This document shows positions 1 through 59,765 of a stretch of 64,000 nt of DNA, piece after piece. The position numbers and the translations under genes are program-made. Origin of the DNA: Zootoca vivipara (taxonomy: Eukaryota). The notes under the pieces were generated by a model. The model searched no databases and was not told the DNA's origin. It was given only the letters and a program-made list of their open reading frames with translations. Within the stretch, counting starts at the first letter, position 1. Every line of letters begins with the position of its first letter. The stretch spans positions 87,234,001 through 87,298,000 of the forward strand of contig NC_083279.1 of NCBI RefSeq assembly GCF_963506605.1, in the 5' to 3' direction.

Positions 1-98
1 TCCTAGGATTCCTGAATGCAGCCTTTCAGTCTGATGAAGGAAGTATTTCTAAGCTGAAAGTTTCTAGCAAAACTCAGTTTTGACCTTTCCCTTTGTAG

Positions 99-2702
99 GG
101 ACAATTATTTGTTTAACCAGACAACCTGGAGCGTCTGCAAAAAACCCGAAAATATCATCCTTTGGAACATTGTGTTGTTTTCCCTCCTGCTGGCAATCGG
201 CATGGCTGAAGCCATCCTCTGCCTCATTCAAGTGGTCAACAGTCTCATTGGCTTCATATGTGGCTTGAGGGAAAGAAAGGTGAGTGCATGAGAGAAAATT
301 GGGGTGTGCACTTCAGATCTTCCCGCCTCCAATAAAGTGTAGCAGTACAGGGGAAGAGAGAAGAAAAGGCAACACAAGCAGCATTACGGGGCATTGAATA
401 AATTCCTTATAAAGACAATTGTGCGAATGAGGTCTAGAAAACCATGAGTTGTGTTTGAGAGAATGAACGGGGAGCTTTATCCTTGGTTTATGAAGGAGTG
501 CAACTGGTTGGCCATTTTGTATTTGGGTTTTAGTTGTGAAACGTTTGCTTTCCACTCAGAGCAGGTATTGGGAACCTTTGGCCCACCTTTGCATGGCTAC
601 CGCTACAGTTGCCCATTTGCATTCAATGTGTCATGGTTGTTGTGTCGTGGGTTTCTTAATACTAGTCATTGAGTGACAACATCTTCATGATAACAGCTCT
701 TTATTTAAGGCAACAAGACAAGACTGACACTGAGGGCAGGGAAGCTACATTTATAGGGACGGGGGACTAGCTAGAAAGGGATACATTTTGGAGGGAACAA
801 TATCAGGCAATCACAGTGCTGCCTTTTGGAGGAAACCAATAAGACAGAGGACCCAAATACAGCAGCTTAAATGAACCAATAGTAGCTGTACTGTTATGTA
901 CTGAGCTGAATCATAGAACAATAGGATCCAGAATCAGCAGTCTGATTGGTCCGCAGGAGCCACCCAATCCAACTCCAGGTGGAAGTGAATCCGCAACCTG
1001 ATTGGCCTGCAGGAGCAGCCAATCAGGCGGCTGGCAGAAGTGAATCCGCAACCTGATTGGCCTGCAGGAGCACCCAATCAGGCGGCTGGCAGAAGTCAAT
1101 CCACAAACTGATTGGCCCACTGGTGTAGCCCTGAAGTAGCCAATCACGCAAAGCCCATTGTGTAAATAATGTATATAAGCAGATGGTTTTGGGAAAAGGG
1201 CATTCTTCTCCTTGATGACTACGAGCTGAATAAAGAGCATGAAATTCACTCTCGACTCCGAGTATATTTCATGTACCTTCTGGAACCAAAAGGCAGTTAC
1301 TTTATCCTAAAGCAAATACAGACAATAATAGTACAGATATAAAATCCTTTGACTCAATACACAACACTTGTATTCCTATTTGGGGGGATCTCAGGCCTCT
1401 AGGTCAACTGTGGCCCTCAGACCTCTCTCTTAGGCCCCAAGGACTCTCCCCAACCTCTCTCCAGGCCTGCCCCTCCTCATCTGTGCTCTAGGCCCTCCTG
1501 ACTGGAATGTGCAGGGCCGTCTTAAACGCCCCTGCCGCTGTGGTGCGCCGGATCTCTCCGGCGCCCTCCCGCCCCGTTTCCCAGCGCGGTGGGCGGGTGG
1601 GCGCAGCGGCGGGCGGGCAGGCAGGCACAGCGCAATCTCTCTGGCGCCCTCCCGCCCCGTTTCCCAGCGCGGTGGGCGGGTGGGCGCAGCTGCGCGGCGG
1701 ACCGGCGGATTGGCCGGCCAGCGGGCGGGCGCAGCTCGCGGTGCCTTTCTGGCGGGCCGGCGCCATGGTGCCCTGCGCCACTGGGGGTCTACCTAGAGCC
1801 GGGCCTGGGAATGTGTCTTTGAACAGTGATAATCCCTCTTGGCTGACTGGCTGGAAGACGGGGGGCGGAAATGGCCTACTGCACAATGATAAAATTGACA
1901 TGGTGGGAAGCAGCAATGCTTCTGAATACCAGTTGCTGAAAACCACAGGAGAAGATTGTGCTATTGTGCTCAAATCTGGTCAGTTTTATTGTATATAGCC
2001 AAAGGCCTTTACAATGGACGACAGGGAATAAAAGGAAAACTTGCTGCCAGCACAAATTTGGCTACCTGGGGTGCAATATATAGATGTTTATCTGCTAGGA
2101 GTTGTGCTCGGATCCTGCTTGTATGCTTCCCACTAGCACCTGACCACTATAAGAACAGGATGCTAGATTAGATGGACCATTGGCCTGATCTGGCCTGCTG
2201 TTACCGTATATAGCGTAGGGTTGCCATATTTCAAAAAGTGAATTCTGAAATAGTTTTTTTAAAGGAAATTCGCCCAAAACCTCCGACATGTGTTGTCATA
2301 CTTCCAGATTTTCCAGGACATTTCAGCGCTTTCAGCCCAGACCCTGCTTCCGACGGCCGAATCCCAGCTATGTCCAGGAATTTCTGGACGTATGGCAACC
2401 CTAATATGGTGGTTCCCCATAGCTTGGGTGCACAACCTGTATCCACCAAAACTGTGTGTTCCGTATTGCAGGCCCAAGTTCATGGAACTCCTTTCAAGTT
2501 AAGGTCAGATATGACTCCTCCCTACTGAACATCTGGGGCCGAGTGAAGACTTTTATTGCTATTTTTACAGCAGACATTTAAACTAAATTCTGAAAAAGTA
2601 AAAGGAAACTATGCTATCTGACTGCGATCTTGACTTATTTTGTTAAGAGAACTCACCCTCCCTTCTTTCGCTTGCTTGCAGACGGATATTGCAGGAATGT
2701 GA
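99..2702 (+). CDS. Transmembrane 4 L six family (TM4SF1-like) gene, last two coding exons (5' part lies outside the window)
   Basis: Exon 99-279 (ctttgtag|, |gtgagt) encodes DNYLFNQTTWSVCKKPENIILWNIVLFSLLLAIGMAEAILCLIQVVNSLIGFICGLRERK, matching the L6-family pattern YL..TWS.C..P..I..WN..LFS.LL..G..E.ILCLIQV.N...G.ICG. Terminal exon 2682-2702 (cttgcag|ACG GAT ATT GCA GGA ATG TGA = TDIAGM*) is in phase 0. AATAAA at 3003-3008. Exact paralog not determinable. Confidence 0.85.
638..1366 (-). mobile_element. Solo LTR-like element (outer), interrupted by a nested LTR
   Basis: 8-bp inverted termini TGTTGTGT (638) ... ACACAACA (1366). Minus-strand TATAAA (750-755) and AATAAA (700-705), several CCAAT boxes. 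TSD degenerate (ATGGT/CTTGT). Confidence 0.6.
892..1271 (+). mobile_element. Solo LTR (inner, sense orientation)
   Basis: TG...CA ends with perfect 5-bp TSD TGTAC (887-891, 1272-1276). 55-bp tandem repeats with CCAAT/ATTGG boxes (982-1117), TATATAA 1172-1178, AATAAA 1229-1234. Confidence 0.85.
1512..1807. mobile_element. GC-rich non-autonomous hAT-type element
   Basis: CAGGG...CCTG termini, 8-bp TSD GGAATGTG (1504-1511, 1808-1815), internal ~55-bp direct repeat. Confidence 0.75.
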
Positions 2703-3690: not shown

Positions 3691-3860
3691 NNNNNNNNNN
3701 NNNNNNNNNNNNNNNNNNNNNNNNNNNNNNNNNNNNNNNNNNNNNNNNNNNNNNNNNNNNNNNNNNNNNNNNNNNNNNNNNNNNNNNNNNNNNNNNNNNN
3801 NNNNNNNNNNNNNNNNNNNNNNNNNNNNNNNNNNNNNNNNNNNNNNNNNNNNNNNNNNNN
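3691..3860. other. Assembly gap (170 N)
   Basis: Run of N. Confidence 1.
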
Positions 3861-7485: not shown

Positions 7486-10400
7486 ATGGCTTTGAGCACA
7501 AGTGGCTCGGTGGCCCTGGTTGCTTTTTATGCTGTTACTTTAGCAACTGGAATATGGGCTTCCTGGAAAGCCAAGAAGCTCAAGAGCAGGAAGCCCAGTG
7601 AAGTGGCCATGGTGGGAAACAGGAAAATGGGTTTTTGCCTTGGACTGTTCACCGCTACCGGTAAGTACCAATTTCCCAAAACCAAGGAGGTTGTGGACTC
7701 TCCTTCTGTGGAGGTTTCTAAGCAGAGGTTGGATGGCCATCTGTCATGGATGCTTTAGTTGAGATCCCTGCATTGCAAGGGGTTGGATTATATGATCCTT
7801 GAGGTCCCTTCAAACTTACAATTCTAATGACTCATGGTGTGAGGCATCATGGTGTTATAGGATTCCCAATTTTTAAAAGGAACTAACATGATATCAAGGC
7901 AGAGTCTAGAAATGTGGTTGGGTGATTAAGGACCCCGGGAAAATGCCAAAATTCAGAAGGGGAAAGTCAGAGTTTTCGTGTTTGTGTGTGCATTTTTGTG
8001 TCTGTGGCCTTTCCTAGCTTTAACGGGGAGATGCCGGGGATTAAACATGAGACCTTTTGAATGCAAAGGGAGTGTTCTACCACTGAACTACTGCATCTGA
8101 GTCTTAGGTCTAGAAGTTTTGCAGCAGATTTTATTTTAAAGCACTTCTTTCCCCAGGTTATTTATTTATTTATTTATATTTTAAAGTCCCCCCCCAGTTA
8201 TACAAAATAGTGAAAAAAGAAAGAAGGTTCAAATATACTAATATAGCAGGTTTTTATTTTATTTTAAAGCACTTCTTTTCCAAAGTTTATTTATTTATTT
8301 ATTAATATTTTAAAGTTTTTCAGTTATACAAAAAATTATACACACACACACACACCGTATATATATATATATATATCTTATATGCATATATGTTTATTAA
8401 TAACCTGCTATATTCTGTACACACTTGTTCCAAATATCAATATGTCTATCCAAACAAAGCCGGCATCTATAATCAATCTATTCATATGTTGCAAGTGCTG
8501 TCGTGTCTTCAATCCATTGATTAAAGAGGGCCAGATTTTTGTTTTTCAAATTCATCAATATCAGTCTTTTGGGCATACTTAGAGCATGTAGAAACCGTTT
8601 TCGTTGTCCAGATGTCAACTTCCATATAATAAGTGTATAATTCAAAAGAATATTTCCCTCTGAATATTTTAAGTTTTTCCTTACAGTTGTATTTATACAG
8701 TTCAACCCTTTCACCCAAAACATAGTGGGAACAGGACAATGTAAGAACACATGTTTCCAAGAGGCATTATCCTCCAACAAGGAGCTGCATCCGACAGTCC
8801 TTTTCTATACAAAAGTAATGGAGTCCAATAGATTCTAAATATTGTTTTCTGTTGTGTAAGCCTTAGTTTAGAGGGACCCAGGTGGCGCTGTGGTTAAACC
8901 ACTGAGCCTAGGGATTGCTGATCAGAAGGTCGGCGGTTCGAATCCCTGTGACGGGGTGAGCTCCCGTTGCTTGGTCCCAGCTCCTGCCAACCTAGCAGTT
9001 CGAAAGCACATCAAAATGCAAGTAGATAAATAGGAACCGCTACAGCGGGAAGGTAAACGGCGTTTCCATGTGCTGCTCTGGTTTGCCAGAAACAGCTTTG
9101 TCATGCTGGCCACATGACCTGGAAGCTATACGCCGGCTCCCTCGGCCAATAATGCGAGATGAGCGCGCAACCCCAGAGTCGGTCACGACTGGACCTAATG
9201 GTCAGGGGTCCCTTTACCTTTTTACCTTTAAGCCTTAGTTTAAGATCCATCAATGCCTTTGCTATGGAAGCTAAAACACTCTCACACTGTCTAGCTCAGG
9301 GGTCAGCAAACTTTTTCAGCAGGGGGCCGGTCCACTGTCCCTCAGACCTTGTGGGGGGCCGGACTATATTTTGAAAAAAATATGAACGAATTCCTATGCC
9401 TCACAAATAACCCAGAGATGCATTTTAAATAAAAGGACACATTCTACTCATGTAAAAACATGCTGATTCCTGGACCGTCCACGGGCAGGATTTAGAAGGT
9501 GATTGGGCCGCATCCGGCCCCCGGGCCTTAGTTTGGGGACCCCTGGTCTAGCTGGTATAGGAACATCCAAATCTTTCCCCGCAATTGTTTCTTACAGTCT
9601 GCATATCAAACTTATTTATTAATAACAAAAATCTATAAAAAGTAATTGCCGGGTTTTTTGTTTCAGAAGATTTGGACAACTGTTCTAATACCTTCTGGTG
9701 TCTCAGAGGCTGAAAAGGCAGCCCAGGCAAACCCTGTTGTTGCTTTTTTAAATTAGTTTTTATTAAAGATTTTCTTGTGCTACGAAACAAACGGGGGGGA
9801 AAGTACATATTTTGTCTGCAGTTTCAATTCATAGTCTTTTTTGCAATTTGTTTACATGTAGTGAGAGACATTTTTGTTATGGACATCTTGCGATTGGGGG
9901 GAAATAGAAGGGGGAGGGAGGGAGAGATGGGGGTGTTGTTCTTTGTCACAAGACTTTGTAGCTGCAGATATTGCTATTGGAATGCATCTGACGGGTGGTA
10001 ATGATCTCGTAAAACACTTAACGTATAAAATTCGTCTTCCTCATCTATCAGTTGATCCACAGTCATTATGCCGCTTCCATCCAGTGTTTCCATACATGCC
10101 ACCTTTTTCCCAATTTTAAAAATGGGGTTCCCCACAAAGGCAATTTAGCGTGGATCAAATCTGTTTTTTGTTCGGCATTATATTCCATATCTTTCTAACT
10201 GACTTAATTGTGTCAAGAGTTTCCTTAATTTTCAAAAACTGTATTTTGATCTTAATATCGTCCAACCAACCAAAGGTGCCGTTAATGCAGATTCTCATGT
10301 GGCCACTTCTTTTCCAAAGTCAATAAATAAATAAAACCTCTCGTCAGTCTGAAAGAGAAAATATTGCAAAAGAGGTTTTCATTGCCAGGGATTGAGACCT

Positions 10401-13400
10401 GAGATGTCCTAAGTGCAATGCAAATATTCTATCACTGAGATGCGGTCCTTCCCTTGTTGTTGTTGTTTAGTCGTTTCCGACTCTTCGTGACCCCATGGAC
10501 CATAGCATGCCAGGCACTCCTGTCTTCCACTGCCTCCCGCAGTTTGGTCAAACTCATGTTCGTAGCTTCGAGAACACTGTCCAACCATCTCATCCTCTGT
10601 TGTCCCCTTCTCCTAGTGCCCTCAATCTTTCCCAACATCAGGGTCTTTTCCAAGGATTCTTCTCTTCTCATGAGGTGGCCAAAGTATTGGAGCCTCAGCT
10701 TCAGGATCTGTCCTTCCAGTGAGCTCTCAGGGCTGATTTCCTTAAGAATGGATAGGTTTGATCTTCTTGCAGTCCATGGGACTCTCAAGAGTCTCCTCCT
10801 TCCCTTATCAGGGGCTTATAAGAATTGGGGCTAAAAGCAGCGCAGAAAAGCATTTATTTTTAGCTGGATTGTCCATTTTGAGCGAATTTCCAAGTTTACG
10901 TTTGTTCTTCCTGCTTTCTTTCAGCCACGTGGGTTGGAGGAGCCTACATCAATGGCACTGCTGAAATTGTCTACCTGCCTTCAAGAGGACTCGTGTGGGT
11001 CCAAGCCCCAGCAGGATTTGCTGTGTCTCTCCTTCTTGGTAAAGTTTTCAAAGAAGCTTAAATATGTAACTATTCCATCCAATAAAAATCAGTACTGGAA
11101 ATGATGAGAGCCTCGTCCAAGGGGAATGCAGAAGTTTGACTTTGATTCACATTGCCCTTGTTGCATACGAAAAGGAGCAATCCAAACACAAGATCCGCTG
11201 GGATGAGGGGGTTTCCGGATAGATGGATCTTGGGCCGAATCTGGACTATGAAACTAAATTTCCCTATCTTGGGTCCGCCATAAATACTTAGAATCATAGA
11301 ATCATAGAGTTGGAAGAGACCACAAGGGCCATCCAGTCCAACCCCCTGCCAAGCAGGAAACACCATCAAAGCATTCCTGACAGATGGCTGTCAAGCCTCT
11401 GCTTAAAGACCTCCAAAGAAGGAGACTCCACCACACTCCTTGGCAGCAAATTCCACTGTCGAACAGTGCAAACCCTCTGATCCTGTGAAGCCGAAGCCAG
11501 GGAAATACCCAAAAAGGGGTGCTCCAGGGGTGTGGCAGAGGCAGGGCAGAGGAGGAGACAGCCCCTATTTCAAACTCCTTTCAGCTCAGTCACAAGGCTT
11601 AGTAACCCAGCAGATTGCTATCCAACAATCCCTGAAGGTCACTGTGATGACTATTCCCAGGTTAGAGTGCTGGTCCAGGTGTGAGGAGACCCCGGTTCAA
11701 ACCTCCACTCAGGTATGGAAACTTGCTATGTGATCTCAAGCCAGTCACCTTCTCTCAGACTACAGGATTGTTAAGGATAAAATGGGAAAGAGGAACCACG
11801 TATGCCACTTTTAGCTCTTCAGGGGGAATTTTGGGTCTTTAAAAACATTGCTTCCGCCCAGATGACAATAATAATTGCAATACAACTGCTTTTTAACAGG
11901 TGGGCTCTTCTTTGTCAAGCCAATGAGATCAAAGAATTACGTGACAATGATGGATCCACTCCAAGAAACGTATGGGAATGTGATGGCAAGCCTCATGTTT
12001 ATTCCATCGTTGATAGGGGACATATTCTGGTTTGCAGCTATTCTTTCTTCCTTAGGTAACTAAACATCTCTTGCTTGTCTGAAGGACTGAAGGCTTGTTT
12101 CAGTAAAGTAGTAACTGCTTTAATTACAGCCCATGAGTCTGTGCAGCCCACATTTCCACTCCATCCATTTCAAATGTCTACAGATGGGGAAACCAAGAGG
12201 AGGATAGATGGAGTGATTTGCCCTAAATCGGATGGGGAACCTCAGACCAGGCAGCCCAAAGTGGCCCTAGATCTCTCTCTCTCTCTCTGGTCCTTGGGCA
12301 CTCTCCCCAGGCCACAGCCGCTCCTCAGCCATGTCCTGCAACAACCCTACTTCATACCCACCGTGAAGAATAACCAGAACTGCTAGTGTTTCCACATCTG
12401 GGAATGTTCATAATGTCTAGAGCAGTGTTTCTCAACCAGTGTGCCTCCAGATGTTTTGGGACTACAACTCCCATCATCCCTAGCTAGCAAGACCAGTGGT
12501 CAGGAATGATGGGAGTTGTAGTCCCAAAACATCTGGAGGCACACTGGTTGAGAAACACTGGTCTAGAGTAGCCTTTCCCAACCTCTGGCACTCCAGATGT
12601 TTTGGAGTTCAAAGGCCATCAGCCCCAGATGTATGGTCAATGATCACAGTCCAATGATTGGAACTGTAGACTAGTAACAGCTGGAGGACACCTGTTTGGG
12701 GAAAACATCTGCTCTAGAAGAACATCTCTCCCTATGTTAATGCTTGTATCTCTTAAGGAGAAATTCTGTCACTTGTGTTGCACACTAATATAATGATATA
12801 AGGGAAATTGTGTAGCATTAAATTTCATACTGTAGCTTAATGTTGTCCTTTTTTCCGCAGGTGCAACCATGCAGGTCATTTTGGATATCCATGGTATTTT
12901 AGTCATTGTTATCTCTGCATGCACAGTTATAATCTATACTTTATTAGGCGGCCTGTACTCGGTTGCATATACAGATGTAATACAGCTGGTCTTTATAACA
13001 GTCAGCCTGGTAAGTCCCAATATTGTTATTTTACTACTCACTTGAAATGCTGGTTTGATTTTTTTAAAAAAAACCATATCCATATTCTACACACACGGGG
13101 CTTGGTCTCAGTCTCTGTGAGGGTGTGATGGGTACAAAATGCTAGGACAAAATTATGAGTCTGGGGATAATCTTTGCTTGCAGTGAATCTGAGCACCATC
13201 AAAGTGAATGAGTGCTCTCTCTACATGTGTGGAGCTAGAGCTTCAGGTGTGAGCAGGAGTTGTGTCTCGAGGACCCGCCACTGGAGCCAGTTCTCTACAT
13301 AGCTGCCAAGTACCCCGTTTCCCCCGGGAAAACCCCATATTTTCTTACCGTTTCCCGCAGGTGTCCCGAATGGCAAAATACCCCATATTCCCCCGGATTA

Positions 13401-16400
13401 CGGAGCTCCTGCCGACGGCCATGTTCTTCTGGTGCTGCGCCGGCACCAGAAGTCGCTTCTACACACTTCCGGACATGCGTAGAAGCGACTTCTGGTGCTG
13501 CAGACATTTTGGAAATGGGCACAGCGGCATCGGAAGTCCCTTCTACGCATGTCCGGAAGTGCGTAGAAGCGACTTCCGGTGTCGCGGCACTGTTGATCCC
13601 GGAACTTGGCACCTATGGTTCTCTATAGTAATCATCAGCAACCAGCTGCTCGTAAGGTCAAATATTGTCTGTGGGTGAGCAGCTATCGACCCATCACTCA
13701 CCTATGTCCCCTGTTTGATGGATTTTGGTGAGCAGGAGAGGATATTTCATTTTACTTTCCTCTTTTCACTTGTGGGTAGCATATTTTGCAAACCAGAGCT
13801 CAAGGCTGGTGTCCTTGAGGGAACCTGGTGGGGGAAATAATTCTGATGTTTCTCTTTTTACCGCAAGTGGGTTTGTATCCCCTTCGCCCTCATGAACTCT
13901 GCAACAAAAAGCATTTCCTACACTGCTGTGCATGACGTCTTCCAAGCACCTTGGATTGGAAAAATGGAAGTGAAGTATCTTGGAAGGTGGCTCGATGACT
14001 TCTTATATTTGGTAAGAACTGCTCCCAAGGCAGATGGGGGTGTGCAAGCTGGTGGTGCTTGCTGTTTTATTTCATTCTGGCCAGACCGTAGACAGTGGCA
14101 TATGGAGACTCTCGGTCACCCGGGGTGGCAACCCGCTCCGTAGTGCGCACTATAGCAGCACCGCCGGCAAACCGCGAGCAAGCTGTGGAGCGAGGTTTTT
14201 TTTACAAAGCCTCGCTCTGCAGCTTGCTCGCTCACCTGCTCGGTGTGCGCTTTGCTTCTGACTGCTGGGGCGGAGGCGAAGGGCGGGCCAGGGAGGGGTG
14301 TGCGGCTGCCGCCCCTCTCTGACCCGCCCCTCGCCTCCGCCCCAGCAGGAAGAAGCAAAGCGCGCTGGCCGAGCAAGTGAGTGAGCAGCCAGCTGCCGAG
14401 CAAGGCTTTACCGGGTGGCGGCTGGCTGCTCGCTCATGGGGGGGGGGGGGGGGCACCGATTGTCAGCAAGCTCCGCGCATGGTCCCGCCTACCACTCTGT
14501 TGAGTGGCATGTAAAGCAGACAACGTTGGCTGCTTCACATGCCACTCAACAGTGGCGGATGGCTGCAACATCAGGGCTTGTGCGATGGCAGTCGCTGCAC
14601 CGGCGGCCGTCGTCGGTGGAGGTGGGGGGCGCGCCGAAGTGTTCCCCCCCCCCCCCGGAGTGGAACCCAGGGCACCCTGCCCCCATCGCCCCCCTTGCTA
14701 CGCCCCTGACCGTAGAAATAGTTGTGTTGGATGAGCAGGGGAAATGTATACCATGTCTGCAGAGGAAAAACACCCGTTCACAGGTGCAATTTGAATTGGA
14801 GCCACATCTGAGAATGGATTTCCAAGCGGCTTCCTGCAACGCCCCCATTACTGGTTACACTGATAATTCTGAACAGCAAACTGCCTTGCTCTTTGCTCAA
14901 GTTTGGTCCACAGTGAGTGGGGGAATTAAAGATTTGGACCTTGGGGTAGTATTGCCCCTTTCTAACATTTGTTTCTGCGGTTTTCTTTTTGTAAATAAAA
15001 TCGGGATTTTTCCTCAGGACGGTGGAGGGTTGATTATGTTGCATCCCATTTGTGAGGTGGCGGCGGCACTCGCCCCTGTTCTGATAGGAAATGCTTTGCA
15101 GGAGGGACGGACCCAAAAATGGGGGGGGGGTCAAGGAGGGTCAGTTGTTCAGGAGTCAAAAACGTCCCTACTTTCACCTGAAGAATGTTGGAGGGTATTA
15201 GATTGTCATTTGTTCTGATCTATTGCTGAATAGATTCCCAAGGGTTTTCCCTTGGGAAGAAACGAGGCAAGAGGGAAACCACTTGGAACCAGAGCAAAAT
15301 TGGGAGTGAGCCCTTCATCACTCAGACAAGACTCAGTTGGAATGGAAGGCCACAAGGCCTAAAAGCACTTGGATTGTACAGTGGTACCTCTGGTTAAGAA
15401 CTTAATTCGTTCCAGAGGTCTGTTCTTAACCTGAAACTGTTCTTAACCTGAGGTACCACTTTAGCTAATGGGGCCTCCCACTGCCGCCGCCATGCATTTT
15501 CTGTTCTCATTCTGAAGCAAAGTTCTTAACCCAAGGTACTATTTCTGGGTTAGCGGAGTTTGTAACCTGAAGCATTTATAACCCGAGGTAACACTGTATT
15601 GCCTGAAGTGACTTTTGGGCTGGCTGTAATGTGGTGGGAGGCTGAGTGATATGTTCATAACCTTCTGCTTCTCTTCCAGGCTCTTGGGAGTATCCCGTGG
15701 CAAATCTATTTCCAGCGAGTTCTCTCAGCCTCTTCTCCAAATGAAGGAAGACTCATCTCCTACCTTTCTGGACTGGGGTGCTTCATCATGGCCATCCCTT
15801 CTGTTGTCATTGGGGCTGTCGCTGCTTCCACAGGTAAGCCATATGTGTTTGCTCTTGTGCCCCACAAGAAGTTCACACCTGGGGGGGAACAAATGAAGCG
15901 AAAGTGACACAGAATACGCTTCAGGCAGCAGAGCTGCAATATCAACAGGCGGCAAGTCACTCAGCATACACACCTTGACCTAAAGAGCAAAACAATCCCA
16001 ACCCATCCTAAAACCCTAAGCGGGGAGTGAGAGTGACCTAGGCTTGCCACAGACATAGGCTTAAGTGAGAAAGCTGGAACATGTCCAGAGGAGGGCAACC
16101 AAAATGGTCAAAGGCCTGGAAACAATGCCTTATGAGGAATGGCTTAGGGAGCTGGGTATGTTTAGCCTGGAGAAGAGAAGGTTAAGGAGTGATATGATAG
16201 CCATGTTCAAAAATATAAAAGGATGTCATATAGAAGAGGGTGAAAGGTTGTTTTCTGCTGCTCCAGAGAAGCAGACACGGAGCAATGGATTCAAGCTACA
16301 AGAAAGAAAATTCCACCTAAACATTAGGAAGAACTTCCTGACAGTAAGAGCTGTTCGACAGTGGAATTTGCTGCCAAGGAGTGTGGTGGAGTCTCCTTCT

Positions 16401-19400
16401 TTGGAGGTCTTTAAGCGGAGGCTTGACAGCCATCTGTCAGGAATGCTTTGATGGTGTTTCCTGCTTGGCAGGGGGTTGGACTGGATGGCCCTTGTGGTCT
16501 CTTCCAACTCTATGATTCTATGATTCTATGGTAGGGAAGGATATAGCTATCCAGAAGTAAGTGGAACGCAAGTTAGAGATAAGGAGGACTTTTGTTTGAG
16601 GGTTATACTCTTCCCACCAGTAAACTTCAGCAGCAAGGCTACAGCATCTCTCTCCCCCATTCCTTGGTCTTCATAGGGCTGGTCCTCAATGATACTGTAG
16701 TTACCTAGAAAAAGAGCTGCTGGAACTCACCATGAATGCCTCCCTTGTTCTCTTAGAATGGCAATGGTGCCCACCTGAGAGGTGCCAGAACTGAGTTCCA
16801 GCAAGTTCCAGCTGGGAAAAAGCCCTGCTAGTCCTTGAGATGATGGAGAAGCAAAGAGGAGGTCCCAGGGGAGCTTTGAGGGCTCCTCAACAACTGAACA
16901 TCTCGAGTTTCTCAGTTCTTTTGAGCCAATGTGCTGCTATAGAATGGGGACAAGGTCTTTTGGATGAGCAATTGTCCTCACACCTTCATTCCATTGCTCA
17001 TTTGCTACAAGTTCCTGTCTGTTTGCCTTTTTGTGATCAAAAGGACATGGCCTAGTGAGAAGCCACTAAGTGGTTATCTGTATGTTTCCTGAATCCTGAG
17101 TTCATGCTTGGTAGATGCTAGACTATGCAGAACCCCAACAGGAGGTGGGAGTTTGGTTTGCTTGATAACACAAGACTAGTGTATTGACCTTTAAGCATGA
17201 AGAGATCAGGTAGTCTTAGCCATGCCTTCCAGGGCACATTTTAGAGAAAGACTAGCTCCGAGATAGTTCATTGAGGGGTGTATTTTATATCAAATAATGC
17301 CAGTTTATGATGCCATGATCTACAACAGGTTTCCCCAAACTTGGGTCTCCAACTGGTTTTTTTTTTTTTACTACAATTCTCATCATCCCTGGGCCACTGC
17401 TCCTGCTAGTTAGGGATGATGGGAGTTGTAGTCCAAAAGCAGCTGGAGACCTAAGTTAGGAAAACTCTGGTCTGCAGTAACAAACCATATAAATTCAGAT
17501 TAGCACACACCATAACACCACCCGGAGGACCGCAAGTCCTCCCTGATTCTTCTGGGGAGAAAGAAGTTGTGATGAATTTTAGGGACAGCCAATTTCGTTC
17601 AAAGACACGCTGTTCCTAACCTAGCCTACTCTCCCTGTTGGTAAAAGTGATAGGGAAGACTTCCTGTTCCTTTGCATGCGTTAACCCTCATGCTGAAATA
17701 CGATCAAACCTTTTAACATACATGACGCTTCTCTGTTTCCTTCCTAAGACTGGAACCAGACTGCCTATGGCCTCCCCAGTCCCAACGACAGAGGAGAGTC
17801 TGCCCTCATCCTCCCACTGGTTCTCTACCATCTGTGCCCAACGTATATCGCCCTTGGTGGCTTGGGCGCCCTGGCTGCTGCCGTGATGTCTTCTGGGGAT
17901 TCTGCCTTGCTCTCTGCTGGTACCTTGTTTGCTCACAACATATACAGGAAAGTCTTCAGGAAAGATGTGAGTTGCTGCGAATAATATCGACACCAGCGGG
18001 CGGAGGGAGGTCTGTGGGGGACGCAAGCGCCTTCACTATATTATTTTCAACGCCTGCTAAAAATTTTGTTTTGTTTTGACAAGCCCACCCAGATATGTGG
18101 AATGTTGATTTGTATTTTAATCTGTTTTTAGTTTATCACGGATTTTGATTTTTTAAAATGATTTAATAGTTGCTTGCAACTGTTTTTACGAATAGTTTTA
18201 TTGTTTTATTCCTGTCGTAAATTGCTTTGAGGTTGTTGTTTTTTTATAATCAAGCAGTGCATACATTTTTATGAAATAAAAATAAACATAAAGTAATGCA
18301 GGAATTCCCTCCCAATGCAAAACAGAAGCATGATTTTCCCGCACCTGGGGCGGAAAAGGTTAAATCCTTTCTCCATGTCTGCCCTGATGCCGTCAATTAT
18401 CCCTTCCCCTACCCCATGATATCTGTATTAAAAATGAAAGAAACTGAATGTTAAATGCAAAGCCAAATCTAGGTTCTCTCTATAAGAAGAGAGAAACTTG
18501 AAAGGCCACAACAGAAATATGCACTGGAACATAATAAAATTTAAAGATAGAAAGCCAGTAGTTACACAGAGTTACACTCAAAATGATCACAGGAAATAGA
18601 TTCGTAACATTTCATAAAATATATTGCAAGGCTCCTCATCTCATTAACTAAACCGGCTCTTGGAGTTTGCGGTAAGCAGTTGACTTCACCAGTAAGAATA
18701 TAGCAGAGACCTTTCTTTTAAAACGAAATGAAATAAAGCAATTCTTAATTTAAGGTGTCCCTGGGAATTTCCAGGAAGCGGTAACAACAGGGTTCAAGGC
18801 CACCCCAAATCCCAGAAAGACAATTTAAATAGAATACATAATAATAAGTGAAATTGGTAAAAGTTACCCAGCTGAGTGTAGTCGTGTCAGACTTAGGACC
18901 TAGCAGACCACCTGAACTCAGCTATGAAGCTGCCTGGGTGACCTGGGTGGTCCAGTCGCTGTGTCTCGGCCCCCAGCCTACCTCACAGGGTTGTTGTGCG
19001 GGTAAAATGGAGAGGAGGAGAGTCATGCACGCCACCTTGAATTCCTTGGAGGAAAGGCGGCATAGAAATGTAATAGCACCTAAACAAATAATAAAGCACA
19101 TATTTCTTTATTTCCAGGCATCAGAGGAAGAAGTGCTATGGGCGATGAGAATGTCCATGGTGATCTTTGGCATGATGTCCGCAGGTCTAGCTTTTCACGC
19201 CCATTCCATTTATGACCTCTGGTTCCTGAGTGGAGAACTCGTCTACGCTCTCCTCTTCCCCCAGCTCTGCTGCGTCCTCTTCATTCGCAACACCAACACT
19301 TACGGCTCCGCCGCCGGGTTCTTCTTGGGCCTCCTGCTGCGCCTCTTGGCAGGGGAGCCCACCCTGAACCTCCCCCCGGTCATCCATTACCCAGGATGCT

Positions 19401-19624
19401 CTCTGGTTGACGGGGCCTATGTCCAGCTGTTCCCATTTAAGCTGTTCACCATGCTGGTATCTCTGCTGACCATCGTCTCCGTCTCGCATCTGTCCGCCTT
19501 TCTATTTAAGGCAAACGTCCTTCCCCGCAGATGGGACGTCTGTAAGATCATGCGAGCTGACAGGGTGGTCATTTCCTTACCCCAGAGACGAAAAAGAGAT
19601 GCCTGCGCCAGAACAGAGTTTTGA
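7486..19624 (+). CDS. SLC5A7-like: High-affinity choline transporter 1-like (SLC5A7/CHT1 paralog, SSS family), 538 aa, complete
   Basis: Coding exons 7486-7660, 10925-11038, 11900-12055, 12861-13009, 13868-14011, 15680-15833, 17749-17966, 19118-19624 (175/114/156/149/144/154/218/507 nt, 1617 nt total), all GT-AG and in frame. In-frame stops lie just upstream of the ATG. CHT1 motifs: [100 protein letters not shown]. Internal exon sizes match those I recall for SLC5A7. AATAAA at 20991-20996. Confidence 0.95.
8400..8740 (-). mobile_element. Degenerate L1/Tx1-like LINE ORF2 C-terminal fragment
   Basis: Minus-strand translation [31 protein letters not shown] resembles L1-clade ORF2 ends. A-rich tail-like sequence lies downstream on the minus strand. 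Boundaries approximate. Confidence 0.45.
8873..9228 (+). mobile_element. Sauria SINE, full length
   Basis: Same consensus as the 6279 copy, (ACCTTT)-type tail, 14-bp TSD TAAGCCTTAGTTTA (8857-8870, 9229-9242). Confidence 0.92.
9297..9545. mobile_element. hAT-type MITE
   Basis: CAGGGGTC...GACCCCTG TIR, 8-bp TSD GTCTAGCT (9289-9296, 9546-9553). Confidence 0.85.
10456..10796 (-). mobile_element. RTE/Bov-B LINE 3' fragment
   Basis: Minus-strand [67 protein letters not shown] is the Bov-B ORF C-terminus. (CAA)n tail, 10-bp TSD TCCTTCCCTT (10446-10455, 10797-10806). Confidence 0.92.
11290..11466 (-). mobile_element. CR1 LINE 3' end fragment
   Basis: (ATTCTATG)n tail on the minus strand. Reverse complement of 16351-16527 with one difference. 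Confidence 0.9.
12423..12560. mobile_element. Palindromic hAT MITE (GACTACAACTCCCATCA family)
   Basis: Long inverted arms CAGTGTTTCTCAACCAGTGTGCCTCCAGATGTTTTGGGACTACAACTCCCATCA, 8-bp TSD GTCTAGAG. Relatives at ~17326-17470, 21344-21467 (TSD CCCTATGG), ~27565-27703, 36808-36943 (TSD CTCTAAGT) and 45743-45858. Confidence 0.85.
13298..13617. mobile_element. hAT-type MITE, CATAGCTGCCAAG family
   Basis: TIR CATAGCTGCCAAGT...ACTTGGCACCTATG, 8-bp TSD GTTCTCTA. Confidence 0.85.
14093..14708. mobile_element. GC-rich non-autonomous hAT-type element
   Basis: CAGTGGCATA...TACGCCCCTG termini, 8-bp TSD ACCGTAGA (14085-14092, 14709-14716). Confidence 0.75.
15379..15596. mobile_element. Tigger-like MITE
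   Basis: TA|CAGTGGTACCTC...GAGGTAACACTG|TA. Same family at 19925-20148 and 33870-34056. Confidence 0.8.
16064..16530 (+). mobile_element. CR1 LINE 3' fragment (ORF2 C-terminus plus 3' UTR)
   Basis: [46 protein letters not shown]...[23 protein letters not shown] and (ATTCTATG)n tail. Confidence 0.92.
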
Positions 19625-19725
19625 GCAAATGGGAGACAAATTGTATTGGTATTTTACCCATGATCCTTCTTGAAACCATAGCTCTTTGATTGAGGTCATC
19701 TTCTATGCTGTGTGATTTATTGTTA

Positions 19726-20148
19726 CAGTCATACCTCGGTTTAAGTACACTTCGGTTTGAGTATTTTCAGTTTAAGTACTCCGCGGACCTGTCTGGAACG
19801 GATTAATCCACTTTCCATTACTTTCAATGGGAAAGTTCGCTTCAGGTTAAGTACGCTTCAGGTTAAGTACAGACTTCCGGAACCAATTGTGTTTGTAAAC
19901 CGAGGTACCACTGTATTATTCTTACAGTGGTACCTCTGGTTAAGAACTTACCTTGTTCTCGAGGTCCGTTCTTAACCTGAAACTATTCTTAACCTGAAGC
20001 ACCACTTTAGCTAATGGGGCCTCCTGCTGTCGCTGCGCCACCGGAGCACGATTTCTGTTCTCATCCTGAGGTAAAATTCTTAACCTGAGGTACTATTTCT
20101 GAGTTAGCAGAGTTTGTAACCTGAAGTATTTGTAACCCAAGGTACCAC
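19726..20148. mobile_element. Two adjacent Tigger-like MITEs in the putative 3' UTR of the SLC5A7-like gene
   Basis: 19726-19913 (TA|CAGTCATACCTCGG...CCGAGGTACCACTG|TA) and 19925-~20148. Confidence 0.75.
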
Positions 20149-24919: not shown

Positions 24920-27900
24920 ATGAGGCCTCTCGGCTGTCTGCAGAGCTGCAGACAAGACGTACGGCTAGCAATCGCCATCCTCTGCCTGACAGCTGGCTGG
25001 GCTCTGCCGAGTAAGTGCTTTGGGCTCCTCGCAGTCCCCACACCTCTTTCCGCCGCCAGATCAGGTTGTGGTGCCAGGCGCATTGCTGAGCTCGGGTCCT
25101 GCGTGCAGGTTTGCCACAGGGGTGATCTGCTTGGCCGCTGTGAGAATGGCGCACTGGGCTAGATAGGGTCATTGCTCTGATCCAGAAGAGCCTGTGAACA
25201 TCCCGGTCCCACAGTGGCCAGACAGACGCATGTGGGAAACCCGCAAGTAGGACCCGAGCATAAGAGCACTCTGCTCTCCTCCTGGTTTCCAGCAACTGGC
25301 ATGTTCCTTGTGTGTTCCTTTCCTAAACAGTCTCATCACTTCCATCACTGCTGCCTCCCTGTTTGGTGTTTGTTTGTGTGGTTCAAGATGCATGGAATTG
25401 TTTTTTTAAGACCTTTTTGAAGTTGCTTTTGTTGTTTGCTGGAAAGAAGGGCTGCGTATAAATTAAACAGATTAATTCCTTTTGCTGGTAATCCCCAACT
25501 AGCATGCAGCTCCTGAAGCCCAGCACTGCTAGAGGGGGAAACTTTAGCCTAATAATTGTCTTCCTCCATCTTCTTTTTCATCTCCTTTGCCTTCGGCTCC
25601 CTTCTTCCTTTGTGGCAAAGTGTAAGCATTTGCTGGGCTGTGGGCCAAGGTGGACATGGCAGGTCGCTTAGATTTAGAATAATAGAATCACAGAATTGCA
25701 GAGTTGGAAGGGACCACGAGGGTCATCTAGCGGCCCAACCCCCAGGAATCTTTCGCCCAATGTGAGGCTTGAATCCATGACCCTGAGATTAAGAGTCTCA
25801 TGCTCTACTGACTGAGCTATTCTCTGGGGTTTTTTTTCAGTTAAGGTATTTGGGCTTGGCCTAAAAAGGAACACAACCTGGTGCGCTCCCCCCCCCTCTC
25901 TCTCACACACACAATCTCTCTGCACACTAGAGTTATTCCTTTGGGCATCTGGAGTCCATATATTACATATTTTCCAAACTGTGTATGTAGTTATACATGG
26001 TTGTATGTGTACCCAACCACACTGCAGTCATTTGAGCCTGTGGTTGCTCCTACCATTGGACAGAGTGAGGCAAGTGCTTCAGGCGGCAGATGCGGAGGGC
26101 AGGCAGGCAGCAGTGGCGATGCGCTGGAGAACAGATCAATTTGTGCTGCATGGCCTGTCCTATGGACCGGCTATCTTGCTGTCCTCAGGTGTGGTTGGAC
26201 ATAGGAGACCACCTCTAGGGTCTGAGGTCCCTCCCCACCCCTGTAAAGTATTTGAGCAAGCTGTCGTCGTCCCCCCCCCCAAGTGGATGGGCATTTCCAT
26301 TCAAATGGTGTGCATGCACTGCCTCATGTGATAACATATGCAGGGCGGGGCTTACCTCCCCCACCCCAATATTTTGTTCAAGTTGGTAGAGCATGAGACT
26401 CTTAATCACAGGGTTGTGGGTTCAAGTCCCACCTTGGCCAAAAAAAATTCCTGCATTGCAGAGGGTTGGATTAGATGACCTATGCAGTCCTTTTCAACTT
26501 CACAATTATATGATTCTAAGTTGGTGGAGGGTGCTGTCCCATTGCCAGTTTTGATGGAAAATCCCACAGCCAGTCTGATCAGCATCTCTATGTAGGAGAA
26601 GGAATCCCCACCTCAGGCAGCAAAATGCCCTGTTTGAGGCTGAAGCACACAGCTGTATTCATCACTTAGAAACTTAGGGAGCTGCCTTATACTGGGGCCA
26701 CCTGTGTTCATCTGTCTCAGCCTTCTCTGATCTGAGGCCCTCCTGACAGCCCCAGCCAGCATGGTTGATAGTCAGGGACGATGGGATTTGTAGTCCAAAA
26801 TTATCCGGAAGGCATCTGGTTGGGGAAGACTGACCAAGCCCTCTCTGCCTGCTCTGACTGGCAGTAATGTTTATGAATGCTGGTTGCTGGGAATCCCAGT
26901 GTGTTTTTGTGCTCATGCCCTGCTTGCAGATTTCCCTCTGTGGTATCTGATTGGTCACTGTGAGAACAGGAGGCTGGACTAGATGGGCCATTGGCTTGAT
27001 CCAGCAGGCTCTTCTCAAGTTCTAACTTTCTGACACAATACCCAAACTGAAACAGGGCTACAAATATCTCTGGCCTTTGCAATGCAATTTTCCAGCCAAG
27101 CAATGTGTACAAAAATGTACACATTATACACAATGTGTACAAAAAAGTGTACAAAATTTGGAGAAAATAATGTACGAAAACACAAAATTGCATACAGAAA
27201 TGTGTACATTGGAATAAGTTGCATTAAAATGACAATGAGTTTCATAAGGATCTCTTTAAAGAACTTAAGGTGTAGCAAAAATAGGCCTAGAGAGAAACCA
27301 AATGTAACAGATTTGTCCATCCCGAGTGACACTAAATAGCTGGCCTCCTCACAACCAAATTTATTTTTATTCATGGCATTTACAGTATATCCCACCTTTC
27401 GCTCCAGGTAGCACACGTGTGTCTCCCCCTCCTCATTCAATCCCCACAACAACCCCATGATCTTAGTCTGAGAGGTAGTGACCAGCCCAATATCACCCAG
27501 AGAGCTTTGTGTTCGAGTGGGGATTCGAATCCTGGTCTCCCTGGTCTTAGATGAGCACTCTAGCCAGGGTTTCCCAAACCTGGGTCTTCAGCTGGTTTTT
27601 TTTGAACTACAACTCCCATCATCCCTAGCTAGTAGGGCCAGTGGTCAGGGGTGATGGGAACTGTAGTCCAAAATCAGCTGGAGACCCAAGTTTGGGAGAC
27701 GATGCTCTAAGCATTGTTTATATGCCACCCTAGCTCAACACAGACAAGGCCAATCCATCACCCAAAGAAAGGCCGACTTCCCCCTTTGCTTTCTTCTTCC
27801 AGCTCGAGGAGGAGAAGCATCATTGCTGGTCTCACAACCCAACATGAACACCACGGTGGCGCAGAACGTTTTGCTGTCCGTTGCGCATACCTTTGGAGGC

Positions 27901-30900
27901 TCCCCCGTCATCAAGTGGACCCACACGTCACCCAGGGGCACGTCCAAAATTGCCGAGTGGAAACCGCGAAGCTACGCCAACATATCCAGCGGCTACGTAG
28001 ACAGAGTGAAGATTTATGACAATGGTTCTCTTCAGCTGCTGAACGTCGATATCAGAGATACTGGTTATTACTTAGTCACGGTGAGAGAAGAGTTTGGGAT
28101 CACCATCTATGGCACCATCCTGTTGAATGTTTATGGTATGAAATGAGAGGATTTAATATTTTCTCTATTGCCGACTGCTCGCAATTCGCTCTTTGGCAGG
28201 AGTTGGGAGCTAAAGCTGGGCTGAATATCCCCATCCCACAATTTCATCATAGGAATGCTTGGCTCGCGCAGAAATGGGAAAGGTGATAGTTGGAGAGTTT
28301 TCAGGGGGTAGGCAGACTTTTAAGCCTGACCTTAAGTGGAGAATGTTTCCCTTCTTTCTTTTTCACCTCCTGCCTTACCACCCAAAACCAGGTACAGTAT
28401 GTCCTTGATCACCACAAGGTGTTTTTTCACACATTCAGCTGAATTTGAGTTAGAAGCCTCTTGCAGACCTTCCCTGCTTGATGCGGGGGAGCTCAGGAAC
28501 ACAATGTCCACAGATAGATCATTCACCTGTTCAGGTAAATGTCCGAGAATGTGCCAAGAAGCTGGCATCTGACTAATAAATGAACGGATATTTATCTATC
28601 TAGCAAATTCATTGCCACCAAATTACCAGCAGTGGTTCAGGGTTGGGTCACTGTCAATTGCCATCATGGATCATTTGCTAAGTGTTGTTGTTGTTGTTGT
28701 TGTTGTTGTTAAGGTTTATTGGATGAATAGATGTGCCGTGTTTCTCCAAAAATAAGCCATACCCCGAAAATATGCCATACCCCGAAAATAAGCCATAGTG
28801 ATAGGCAGTTTAACCTTGTAGGTTAACCTTGTAGGTTAAACTGTACCATACTTAATAAAAAAAGACATCCCCTGAAAATAAGCCACCGTGTGTTTTTTTT
28901 GAGGAAAAATAAATATAAGACGGTGTCTTATTTTTGGAGAAACACGGTATATTCTCTGATTCAGGGGGATTCCCATTCTACCCAGGGGCAGAGCAAGCTG
29001 TGGTTTTGGTGCTGCCAAAACGGTCCGCCTGCTGGCTCCCTCTGAGCTGTAGGGTGGCAGACAGACTCCTCATCATCTCTGTGATAAAAAACCAACAACT
29101 CTAGCTCTGCACAAAATGCTCACCAACTTTGGCTCCTCCCAAAAATATGAAATAAAGTCAAACCATTTTTGCAGGGTGACAAGAAATTTTCTGCACCAGG
29201 TACCACCTGACCTTGCTACATCACTGATTCTACATCTTGTTATCCTGATCTGGGAACCCTAAGGCATTACAGCAGGACAAAACCTTATGAAATAGAGAAT
29301 TAAAAACCTGATAAAGATCAGGTTTTCAACAGATAGAGGGTGGTGGCCAGTGGCTTCTCCTTCTGTGTGTTTGTGTGCTGTCTGCCTTTGCCTTTCTCAT
29401 TGCTGAGGGAGACTTCAATGAAAGTGAGATGCAGCCAGGATCTAAGTCAGACCATGGCAACAGAATGTAAAGTCCTGGGGGAGAGTAACCTGTGCCAGGT
29501 TTGTGGTCCCGTTTCTGAATGCTTCCCACGTAAGAATCCCCAACTCCTCCCTGCAAGTAAACAATGAGCATGGGACGGCGAACGCTTTTATTTGCATAGG
29601 GAAACATTTCAAAATGCAATTGCTTTGACTGCCCACCTCCACCAAAAACCCAAAACAGATACAACTCCATTTCTATATCATTGCTCTACTGCAGGGGGGG
29701 CCAACTCTCAAGAGACTGTGATCTACTTGGGGGTAAGCTGTTAAGCTTTTTTTTAAGGAGGAGGAAAGCCCTGTTTTTTTAGAAGTTGTTGAGCTTTTGT
29801 AGGGGAGCCAAAGTTGTTGAGCTTCTTTGGGGCGAGCCAGTGATCTACCACAGACGTCCAGTGATCTACCGGTAGATCACGGTCTTCCTGTTGGACATGC
29901 CTGCTCTCCTGCATAGGTAGAACAAACTCCAGATAAGTCACAAGGGTGATTGATGGCAGCGGCGGTGGGGAAATTCAGAAACAGAGAGGTCCAAAAGCAA
30001 TGAGGGCTTGGCAAAAAGGCTCAGCTGGGATCCTGCCAGACAACCTGTTTATTCAGCATTCATCCTGATTTGCTTGCACAAAGCTTATGCCATGGTTAAA
30101 TGGTATCTGATATTTACTGTGCATTTGTTTGTGGGGAGGTAATTCAACAAGGAACATTCCCCCTGGTTTGCTTGATTACACACCCTCCCATTAATCATGT
30201 GTTCACTTCCCAATGCATATGACTGTCACTTTCCTAGTTGCAAAAGGTGTTATGGTTTTTTCCCCTTCTTAGTGCATTTGTTGTGCTGGGGTGACAGAGG
30301 ACTTTAAACCCCTTTAATTGTGCAAACCTAAATAAAGGATGTGCACTTGAATCTATCCCACAGGATAGTGATAGTCTGGAGGCACCCCTCGATGACTCAT
30401 GATTTCTTTTCCAAGTGTCCTAAGTCAACTTTCACTGTGTTGTCTGCCTCCCCTTTTCCTTCAGAGATTATCTATGAAGACCTGCATTTCGTAGCCGTCA
30501 TTTTTGCCTTCCTCGCAGGTGTGTCTGCCATTCTAGTCTGCCTCATGTGGCTGTGCAATAAATTAATGCAGCTGTTTCAGAAGGAGAGGCACCGGATCAA
30601 AGGTAATCTTTGCAGCAGCATGTAAAGGAAATAAATAATCTTTCATTTGCTCCAACTGTACCTGTTTGTCAGAGATAGCTCCTGATTTGGGGGGTGGGGT
30701 TTGCTATCCATTCTCGGAAAATGGTTTCTTTGGAGGATGCTTCGTTGAATTGTTGTTATTGCGAGTTGCAAACACTGTTCTTCAGCAGGAATCGGAAACC
30801 AGCGACCCTGCAGTTGGCAGTCCAGCTCCCATCAGCCCCAACAAACATAGCAGAGATCAGGAATTACAAGAGTTGTAGTTCTCCATTCCTCTTAAGAAGA

Positions 30901-59570: not shown

Positions 59571-59765
59571 TACCTTGTCCCTGTAGGCTTATTGAAAACG
59601 AAGGCTGCAACCTTTCCTAAGTACTTCTAGAAAACACAACCCCACAGGCTCTGGAGGTGAGGGGGCACTGCTGAAATTTTCTGTATTAGACTGGTATGCT
59701 CTGATCTAAATGGATTAATTAAAATGCCATCAAAGTGCAATCATTTTCTTTCATTGTTTCAACAG

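Follow-up and report, generated by a model that had tools for sequence, protein, structure and literature searches.

An intact SLC5A7-like gene of Zootoca vivipara belongs to an ancient sister branch of the choline transporter CHT1

The window analyzed here is a 64,000-nt stretch of the Zootoca vivipara genome (NC_083279.1, positions 87,234,001–87,298,000, forward strand), and it carries a gene resembling SLC5A7, which encodes the choline transporter CHT1, at nt. 7486–19624 (+). The sequence read-out gave eight coding exons encoding 538 a.a. followed by a TGA stop codon, with no internal stops or frameshifts, as had been proposed in an earlier reading made from the sequence alone (hereafter the sequence-only reading), and with GT-AG boundaries at every intron. 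Exons 4 and 7 scored above the cut-off of PF00474, placing the product in the SSF family, and the internal exons (114/156/149/144/154/218 bp) are identical in size and phase to those of the canonical SLC5A7 in the same genome. No extra copy or pseudogene of the transporter was found within the window or the 90 kb upstream.

The window gene is transcribed and spliced, as seen for exons 6–8, which are joined at the predicted sites in a 702-base contig from run X1 (3 letters differ). We regard this contig as a spliced transcript because the genome holds no intronless copy, although X1 is only guessed to be an RNA run. Contigs covered the splice joints of exons 6–8 only, those of exons 1–5 being obscured by abundant intronic repeats. 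The introns contain many short interspersed element (SINE) and CR1-like pieces, which are heavily represented in the RNA runs. Downstream of the gene, AATAAA/ATTAAA hexamers at nt. 20991 and 21195 are candidate signals of the 3′ untranslated region (UTR).

Two genome searches, with exons 8 and 7 as queries, each returned two SLC5A7-type loci: the window gene and a second locus at G000:C4:26.02–26.03 Mb. The latter is the canonical SLC5A7, located on the same contig 61 Mb away and encoding 575 a.a. with every human pocket residue present; the two lizard proteins are identical at 269 of 536 aligned residues (50%). A separate true ortholog within the canonical clade therefore exists elsewhere in the genome, in line with the paralogy that the sequence-only reading had assumed, and we rejected the idea that the window gene is the only SLC5A7. 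We likewise rejected the idea that its substitutions are shared with canonical reptile CHT1, as the canonical lizard gene retains D48, I89, Y91, and Y407; the canonical boa protein (P0140) carries Y407F, one snake exception among the canonical proteins. A decaying duplicate, or the lizard's sole SLC5A7, would agree with the near-zero exon depth in all three raw RNA runs (~6% of each sampled) and with evolution faster than that of the canonical gene. However, this explanation is largely refuted and highly improbable given the canonical copy, the intact spliced frame, the identity of the window protein to its orthologs (94% to Podarcis and 67% to frog), and the full-length orthologs in >100 tetrapods among the matches listed in a protein search with exon 8.

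An IQ-TREE phylogeny of 40 proteins (out of an 88-row alignment; LG+F+G4) resolved a canonical clade (100/100) and a second clade (100/100), which are sisters at 94.7/96. The window gene lies outside the mammalian CHT1 clade and within this sister clade, alongside proteins from chimaera, shark, skate, coelacanth, ray-finned fish, amphibian, turtle, crocodilian, bird, and squamate species. The duplication is therefore older than the split between sharks and bony fish, and the branch sister to SLC5A7/CHT1, to which the intact window gene belongs, is ancient. A pre-vertebrate split, suggested by a first FastTree phylogeny that grouped canonical CHT1 with invertebrate proteins, was dropped after shark, coelacanth, and fish proteins were added, and a lizard-specific duplicate was rejected given the orthologs across jawed vertebrates. 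Both copies reside on contigs of equal length, taken to be the same chromosome, in 24 of 27 species with chromosome-scale contigs (the exceptions being gar, conger, and Ascaphus; the count excludes eight scaffold-level pairs and an ambiguous one from a turtle), which fits local duplication better than genome doubling without proving it. Second paralog copies on the same contig were noted in turtles, caecilians, and some frogs (P0020, P0024, P0036, P0112, P0241, P0243, and P0245), of which the turtle copies P0020 and P0024 carry CHT1-like Y91 and G66. The Podarcis model P0001 ends in an unrelated 45 a.a. C-terminus, probably a prediction error.

No mammal was present among the best 120 of 162 exon 8 matches (which extend as far as frogs), among the matches listed for the bichir paralog (120 of 2498), or among the 30 of 150 representatives checked by species name. 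The paralog was thus likely lost in mammals, as the sequence-only reading had supposed, with monotreme and marsupial DNA lying outside the search. PMC9309457 counts twelve SLC5A members, with SLC5A7 single. Two low-quality Tasmanian devil models named CHT1-like (P0230 and P0240), absent from our tree, show 71–72% identity to canonical exon 8 and do not have the endocytic motif of CHT1.

Residue numbers come from alignment with the human CHT1 PDB chain for exons 1, 2, and 8 and with an identically numbered primate CHT1 for the remainder. This alignment confirmed four substitutions picked out in the sequence-only reading, namely Y91F (F90, TTT, nt. 11017–11019), Y407F (F406, TTC, nt. 19223–19225), D48K (K47, nt. 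7624–7626), and I89A (A88, nt. 11011–11013), as well as the retention of W62, W141, W254, W406, and the AAVMSS and DWNQT motifs. In the choline cage that it named, W62, Y91, W141, W254, and W406 stood but Y407 did not; the six aromatics surrounding choline are W62, Y67, Y91, W141, W254, and W406 (PMC11589582). Y407 instead lies in the outer lid and contacts hemicholinium-3, with Y407A and S243R weakening inhibition of uptake (PMC11589582), and given that Y407A was usable in such choline-uptake assays, it presumably still transports.

Five of the six cage residues are identical in the window protein, the sixth being Y91F. In human CHT1, Y91F has a KM of 22.2 µM and a Vmax of 353 (30%), against 12.2 µM and 1181 for the reference (PMC13220886, Table 2), while W62F, W141F, and W406F push the KM up to 271–402 µM (20–30-fold). 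Among conserved canonical sites, 108/348 (31%) are altered in the tetrapod paralog majority; against this background, change in the cage (1/6) is not in excess (Fisher p 0.67), change at the outer lid and inhibitor sites (4/8) is not significantly enriched (p 0.26), and the ion and inner-path sites are preferentially kept (14/15 kept, 1/15 changed; p 0.044). Position 48 is N in 97/110 and K in 9/110 tetrapod paralogs, position 89 is V, L, A, or I in paralogs and F in 12/106 canonical proteins, and sfCHT, a proven bacterial choline transporter, has S, W, and A at positions 48, 89, and 410. D48K and I89A are, by this comparison, lineage-specific. The sequence-only reading had taken D48 and I89 as markers of specificity, which is not supported given their variability among paralogs and in sfCHT; nor do the named substitutions as a whole argue for altered specificity, since human Y91F retains choline affinity and cage change is at the background level. 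Of that reading, the gene and its paralogy stand. In the Chinese alligator paralog (P0016), W254 is replaced by F.

Several changes went unmentioned in that reading: G66A, S410G, G404D, D411E, L246Y, S243D, Y80R, Y453T, R361H, and the loss of the C-terminal endocytic motif. Among 110 tetrapod paralogs, Y91F (104), S410G (110), G66A (103), G404D (109), Y407F (109), D411E (104), L246Y (93), and S243D (103) are near-fixed, and the ML352-groove residues Y80 and Y453 are substituted in all 110. The hydrogen bond between Y91 and S410 closes the outer gate (PMC11589582), and both of its partners are changed in the paralog. Sharks keep Y91 and mostly G66 (with Y67F in 11/11), so it was in tetrapods that Y91F and G66A became prevalent. 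The chloride loop reads VGGAY in the window protein vs. 63VGGGY67 in CHT1, where chloride is held by backbone nitrogens and touches the choline hydroxyl (PMC11589582). By comparison, all five Na2/Na3 residues (S346 and S347; D188, D349, and S350) and the four inner translocation residues (R47, Q259, R260, and S263) are kept, and W62, Y67, W141, W254, W406, D188, S346, S347, D349, S350, R47, Q259, and R260 are each present in 108–110 of the 110 tetrapod paralogs. A predicted structure of the worm-lizard ortholog P0002 (80% identical to the window protein), built from a 76-sequence alignment (predicted local distance difference test score, pLDDT, 87.9), fits human CHT1 (9bim; template modelling (TM) score 0.93, root-mean-square deviation 1.3 Å), indicating an unchanged fold. 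The model also matches SGLT structures. As half of the alignment information as well as the training set include CHT1 relatives, the match to CHT1 speaks to family, not substrate.

Could the tetrapod paralog have shifted to another substrate, such as an amine that is smaller or carries a different head group, e.g., ethanolamine, dimethylaminoethanol, trimethylamine N-oxide (TMAO), betaine, or carnitine? Y91F, G66A, S410G, G404D, and Y407F are jointly near-fixed, G66A touches the chloride to which the choline hydroxyl is bound, the outer vestibule is lined by L246Y and S243D, and the clade tolerates pocket change, as shown by the shark Y67F and the ray-finned copies described below. Nevertheless, we consider a shift unlikely, as all four tryptophans are kept (the three that were tested cost 20–30-fold in KM when changed; PMC13220886), cage change is no higher than background, and Y91F retains choline affinity. 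A substrate change is more likely in ray-finned fish, whose multi-copy paralogs have W254 substituted in 64/64 cases (Y 52, S 6, F 5, and C 1, after exclusion of nine rows that were fused or lacked a name) and, from their sequences, appear the best candidates for a true switch. Copies from bichir, bowfin, and sturgeon have lost W406 as well.

The C-terminal tail of the paralog is short, variable, and predicted to be disordered. In CHT1, the SEENMDKTILV motif drives constitutive endocytosis and probably also synaptic-vesicle routing (PMC5866402); MDKxxL[VM] is present in 117/120 canonical proteins, whereas DKxxL[VIL] occurs within the last 90 residues of 0/207 paralogs and is missing in the window protein too. 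We infer that the paralog protein is not sorted like CHT1, and its residence at the cell surface is a prediction from the tail sequence. The same absence bears on the notion of a second neuronal choline transporter, i.e., a low-capacity back-up doing the same job as CHT1 in some cholinergic cells. Such a role would suit the exon plan, fold, and ion sites, which are the same as in CHT1, and, as cholinergic cells are present in fish gill (PMC7141700), the gill signal discussed below could be neuronal. We consider it quite improbable, given the vesicle-routing motif missing in 207/207 paralogs, the lower conservation to frog (0.67 identity vs. 0.84 for the canonical gene), and run X1, which yielded the spliced paralog contig but no contig on canonical exons 6–8 (depth ~4.5, no tissue label). 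Runs X2, X17, and X18 likewise gave no contig on canonical exons 6–8.

In salmon gill, a gene named SLC5A7 (LOC106602131) is induced with smolting (PMC7141700). The forward quantitative PCR (qPCR) primer used for it encodes RWDVFQ, which is present in three paralog-clade fish proteins and no canonical protein, and the broader pattern [RK]WD[VIFL] occurs near the C-terminus of 138 proteins, none canonical. From this six-residue match, the smolting marker is probably not the neuronal gene. SLC5A7 is also reported from stingray kidney at 1–5 transcripts per million (PMC9396271), from the skin and head kidney of salmon (PMC13142024), and from pupfish transferred to seawater (PMC8438076); these records may concern either copy.

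Taken together, the comparisons favor, at a probability of roughly 0.6, a product that acts as a Na+/Cl−-coupled choline symporter at the surface of non-neuronal (epithelial) cells and does not take part in synaptic-vesicle cycling. In such a mechanism, sodium at Na2 and Na3 together with chloride at the TM1 loop would prime the same tryptophan cage, choline would move inward along R47/Q259/R260, the outer gate would close without the Y91–S410 bond, and the protein would remain at the membrane. By analogy with human CHT1 mutants, choline would remain the substrate at near-equal affinity, with Y91F alone lowering turnover and S410G plus G404D, Y407F, and D411E possibly re-tuning the outer gate. 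The paralog is also predicted to respond to hemicholinium-3 and ML352 with a sensitivity other than that of CHT1. Its role, by analogy with fish data only, may be to provide tissues with choline as a precursor of phospholipids or osmolytes.

Several points weigh against a surface choline symporter. G66A sits in the loop whose chloride contacts the choline hydroxyl, D48 and R361, sites of loss-of-function disease variants (PMC7612411), are both altered in the paralog, and the changes act jointly, so that single human mutants may mislead. Motif loss need not raise surface protein, considering that tail truncation of human CHT1 reduces surface delivery (PMC7612411), and 12/207 paralogs, the window protein not among them, have some [DE]xxxL[LI] motif in the last 45 residues. 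The missing canonical contig in X1 is a weak indication given the low depth, lack of a tissue label, and guessed RNA origin of the run, and the scant exon depth in the three raw RNA runs noted above likewise counts against this reading. The gill observations were made in ray-finned fish, a branch in which the pocket differs, and depend on the primer match. The literature search turned up no transport assay of any clade member.

The closest known system is human CHT1 (PDB 8j74, 9bfi–9bfk, and 9bim; PMC11589582), which has in common with the window gene the exon plan, the LeuT fold (from the P0002 model), W62/Y67/W141/W254/W406, both sodium sites, R47/Q259/R260/S263, and the N301 sequon. It differs in locus, in sequence (~50–53% identity), at Y91F with S410G, G66A, G404D/Y407F/D411E, L246Y/S243D, and the ML352-groove changes Y80R and Y453T, and in the C-terminal tail, which is ~40 a.a. 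shorter in the window protein and without SEENMDKTILV. The Salimicrobium flavidum transporter sfCHT (PDB 9rws/9rwt; PMC13220886) shares with the paralog the four-tryptophan cage, the inner path, and the lack of an endocytic tail, and both depart from the human protein at positions 48, 89, and 410; unlike the paralog, it is bacterial, has 14 helices, and retains Y91, Y407, and G66. Database entries named CHT1-like (P0001, P0002, P0069, P0435, and P0447) are orthologs of the window gene (clade 100/100), their names being automatic and many being filed as SLC5A7. PMC9309457, PMC7231471, and PMC5515482 mention co-orthologs or expansions in fish, the last of these papers naming zebrafish slc5a7b as not well described. 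The expanded ray-finned slc5a7 proteins (PMC9309457, PMC7231471, and PMC7141700) that we examined fall in the paralog clade; unlike the window gene, they are multi-copy with W254 replaced, and these papers treat them as SLC5A7 copies.

In the literature searched, which fell short of most subscription papers and supplements, we found no paper defining the clade, its mammalian loss, or its function, in agreement with the uncharacterized status given in the sequence-only reading. The gene is a genuine and ancient, though apparently unstudied, variant of a known transporter, filling a gap at the subfamily level as opposed to representing a new kind of system. SLC5A7 has been regarded as a single neuronal gene because mammals have one, while most jawed vertebrates carry two branches, and fish transcriptome reports of slc5a7 in gill, kidney, and skin may concern the second branch, as at least one primer indicates. 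As a natural CHT that combines Y91F/S410G with the loss of the endocytic tail, the protein also offers a ready test of the CHT1 outer gate and of vesicle sorting. More tentatively, and with the odds against it, the clade might form a second jawed-vertebrate CHT subfamily of surface epithelial Na+/Cl− symporters for choline-like amines (osmolyte or lipid supply), expanded with substrate change in ray-finned fish, re-tuned at the gate to a non-choline preference in tetrapods, and deleted with its TM4SF neighbor in mammals.

Table 1. Features of the SLC5A7-like locus (nt. positions in the window; window residues with the human CHT1 equivalent in brackets).
Feature	Position	Strand	Details
Upstream neighbor, TM4SF/L6-family gene, last exon	58–288	+	Further pieces at L022:8996-9385 and L023:8341-8595
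Coding exon 1	7486–7660	+	ATG; TM0; R46-K47 (R47-D48)
Coding exon 2	10925–11038	+	W61; chloride loop VGGAY (G66A, 10942–10944); Y66; R79 (Y80); A88 (I89); F90 (Y91)
Coding exon 3	11900–12055	+	W140 (W141), codon 12028–12030
Coding exon 4	12861–13009	+	D187 (Na3 site D188), codon 12974–12976; Pfam SSF match
Coding exon 5	13868–14011	+	Outer vestibule D242 (S243), Y245 (L246)
Coding exon 6	15680–15833	+	S250 (G251); W253 (W254); inner path Q258/R259/S262; joined to exon 7 in run X1 contig
Coding exon 7	17749–17966	+	NQT sequon N300; Na2 serines S345/S346; Na3 D348/S349; H360 (R361); Pfam SSF match; spliced on both sides (exons 6 and 8) in run X1 contig
Coding exon 8	19118–19624	+	D403 (G404); W405; F406 (Y407); G409 (S410); E410 (D411); T452 (Y453)
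Coding exon 8, 3′ part	to 19624	+	Short unrelated C-terminal tail without MDKxxLV motif; stop TGA
3′ UTR start	19625–19752	+	Covered by run X1 contig (19423–19752)
Downstream neighbor, V-set Ig gene	27667–30622	+	Presumably VSTM5

A Pfam scan of the neighborhood (36 window ORFs and 263/270 upstream ORFs) gave the gene order, from upstream, as an innexin/pannexin match, two multicopper-oxidase exons, the TM4SF/L6 gene, the transporter, the V-set Ig gene, MED17, and a DUF1907 gene; among the neighbors, we take the innexin/pannexin, multicopper-oxidase, V-set Ig, and DUF1907 genes to be PANX1, HEPHL1, VSTM5, and C11orf54, respectively. In two birds, the TM4SF gene adjoins the paralog (fused models P0037 and P0066), and a fused gar model joins the paralog to the last exon of the V-set gene, from which it follows that the neighborhood is old. 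The human 11q21 order presumably has nothing between HEPHL1 and VSTM5, and we assume that the TM4SF gene is also lacking at this place in human; mammals may have lost it jointly with the transporter. Between these two genes, the window contains 170 N (nt. 3691–3860), which leaves the coding exons untouched. Beyond the DUF1907 gene lies a lysine-rich ORF (nt. 59723–60187, +) with no Pfam match, the position of which, we assume, fits TAF1D. Upstream, a long interspersed element (LINE) with endonuclease and reverse-transcriptase frames occupies L015:8888-10000 and L016:1-2324 on the reverse strand.

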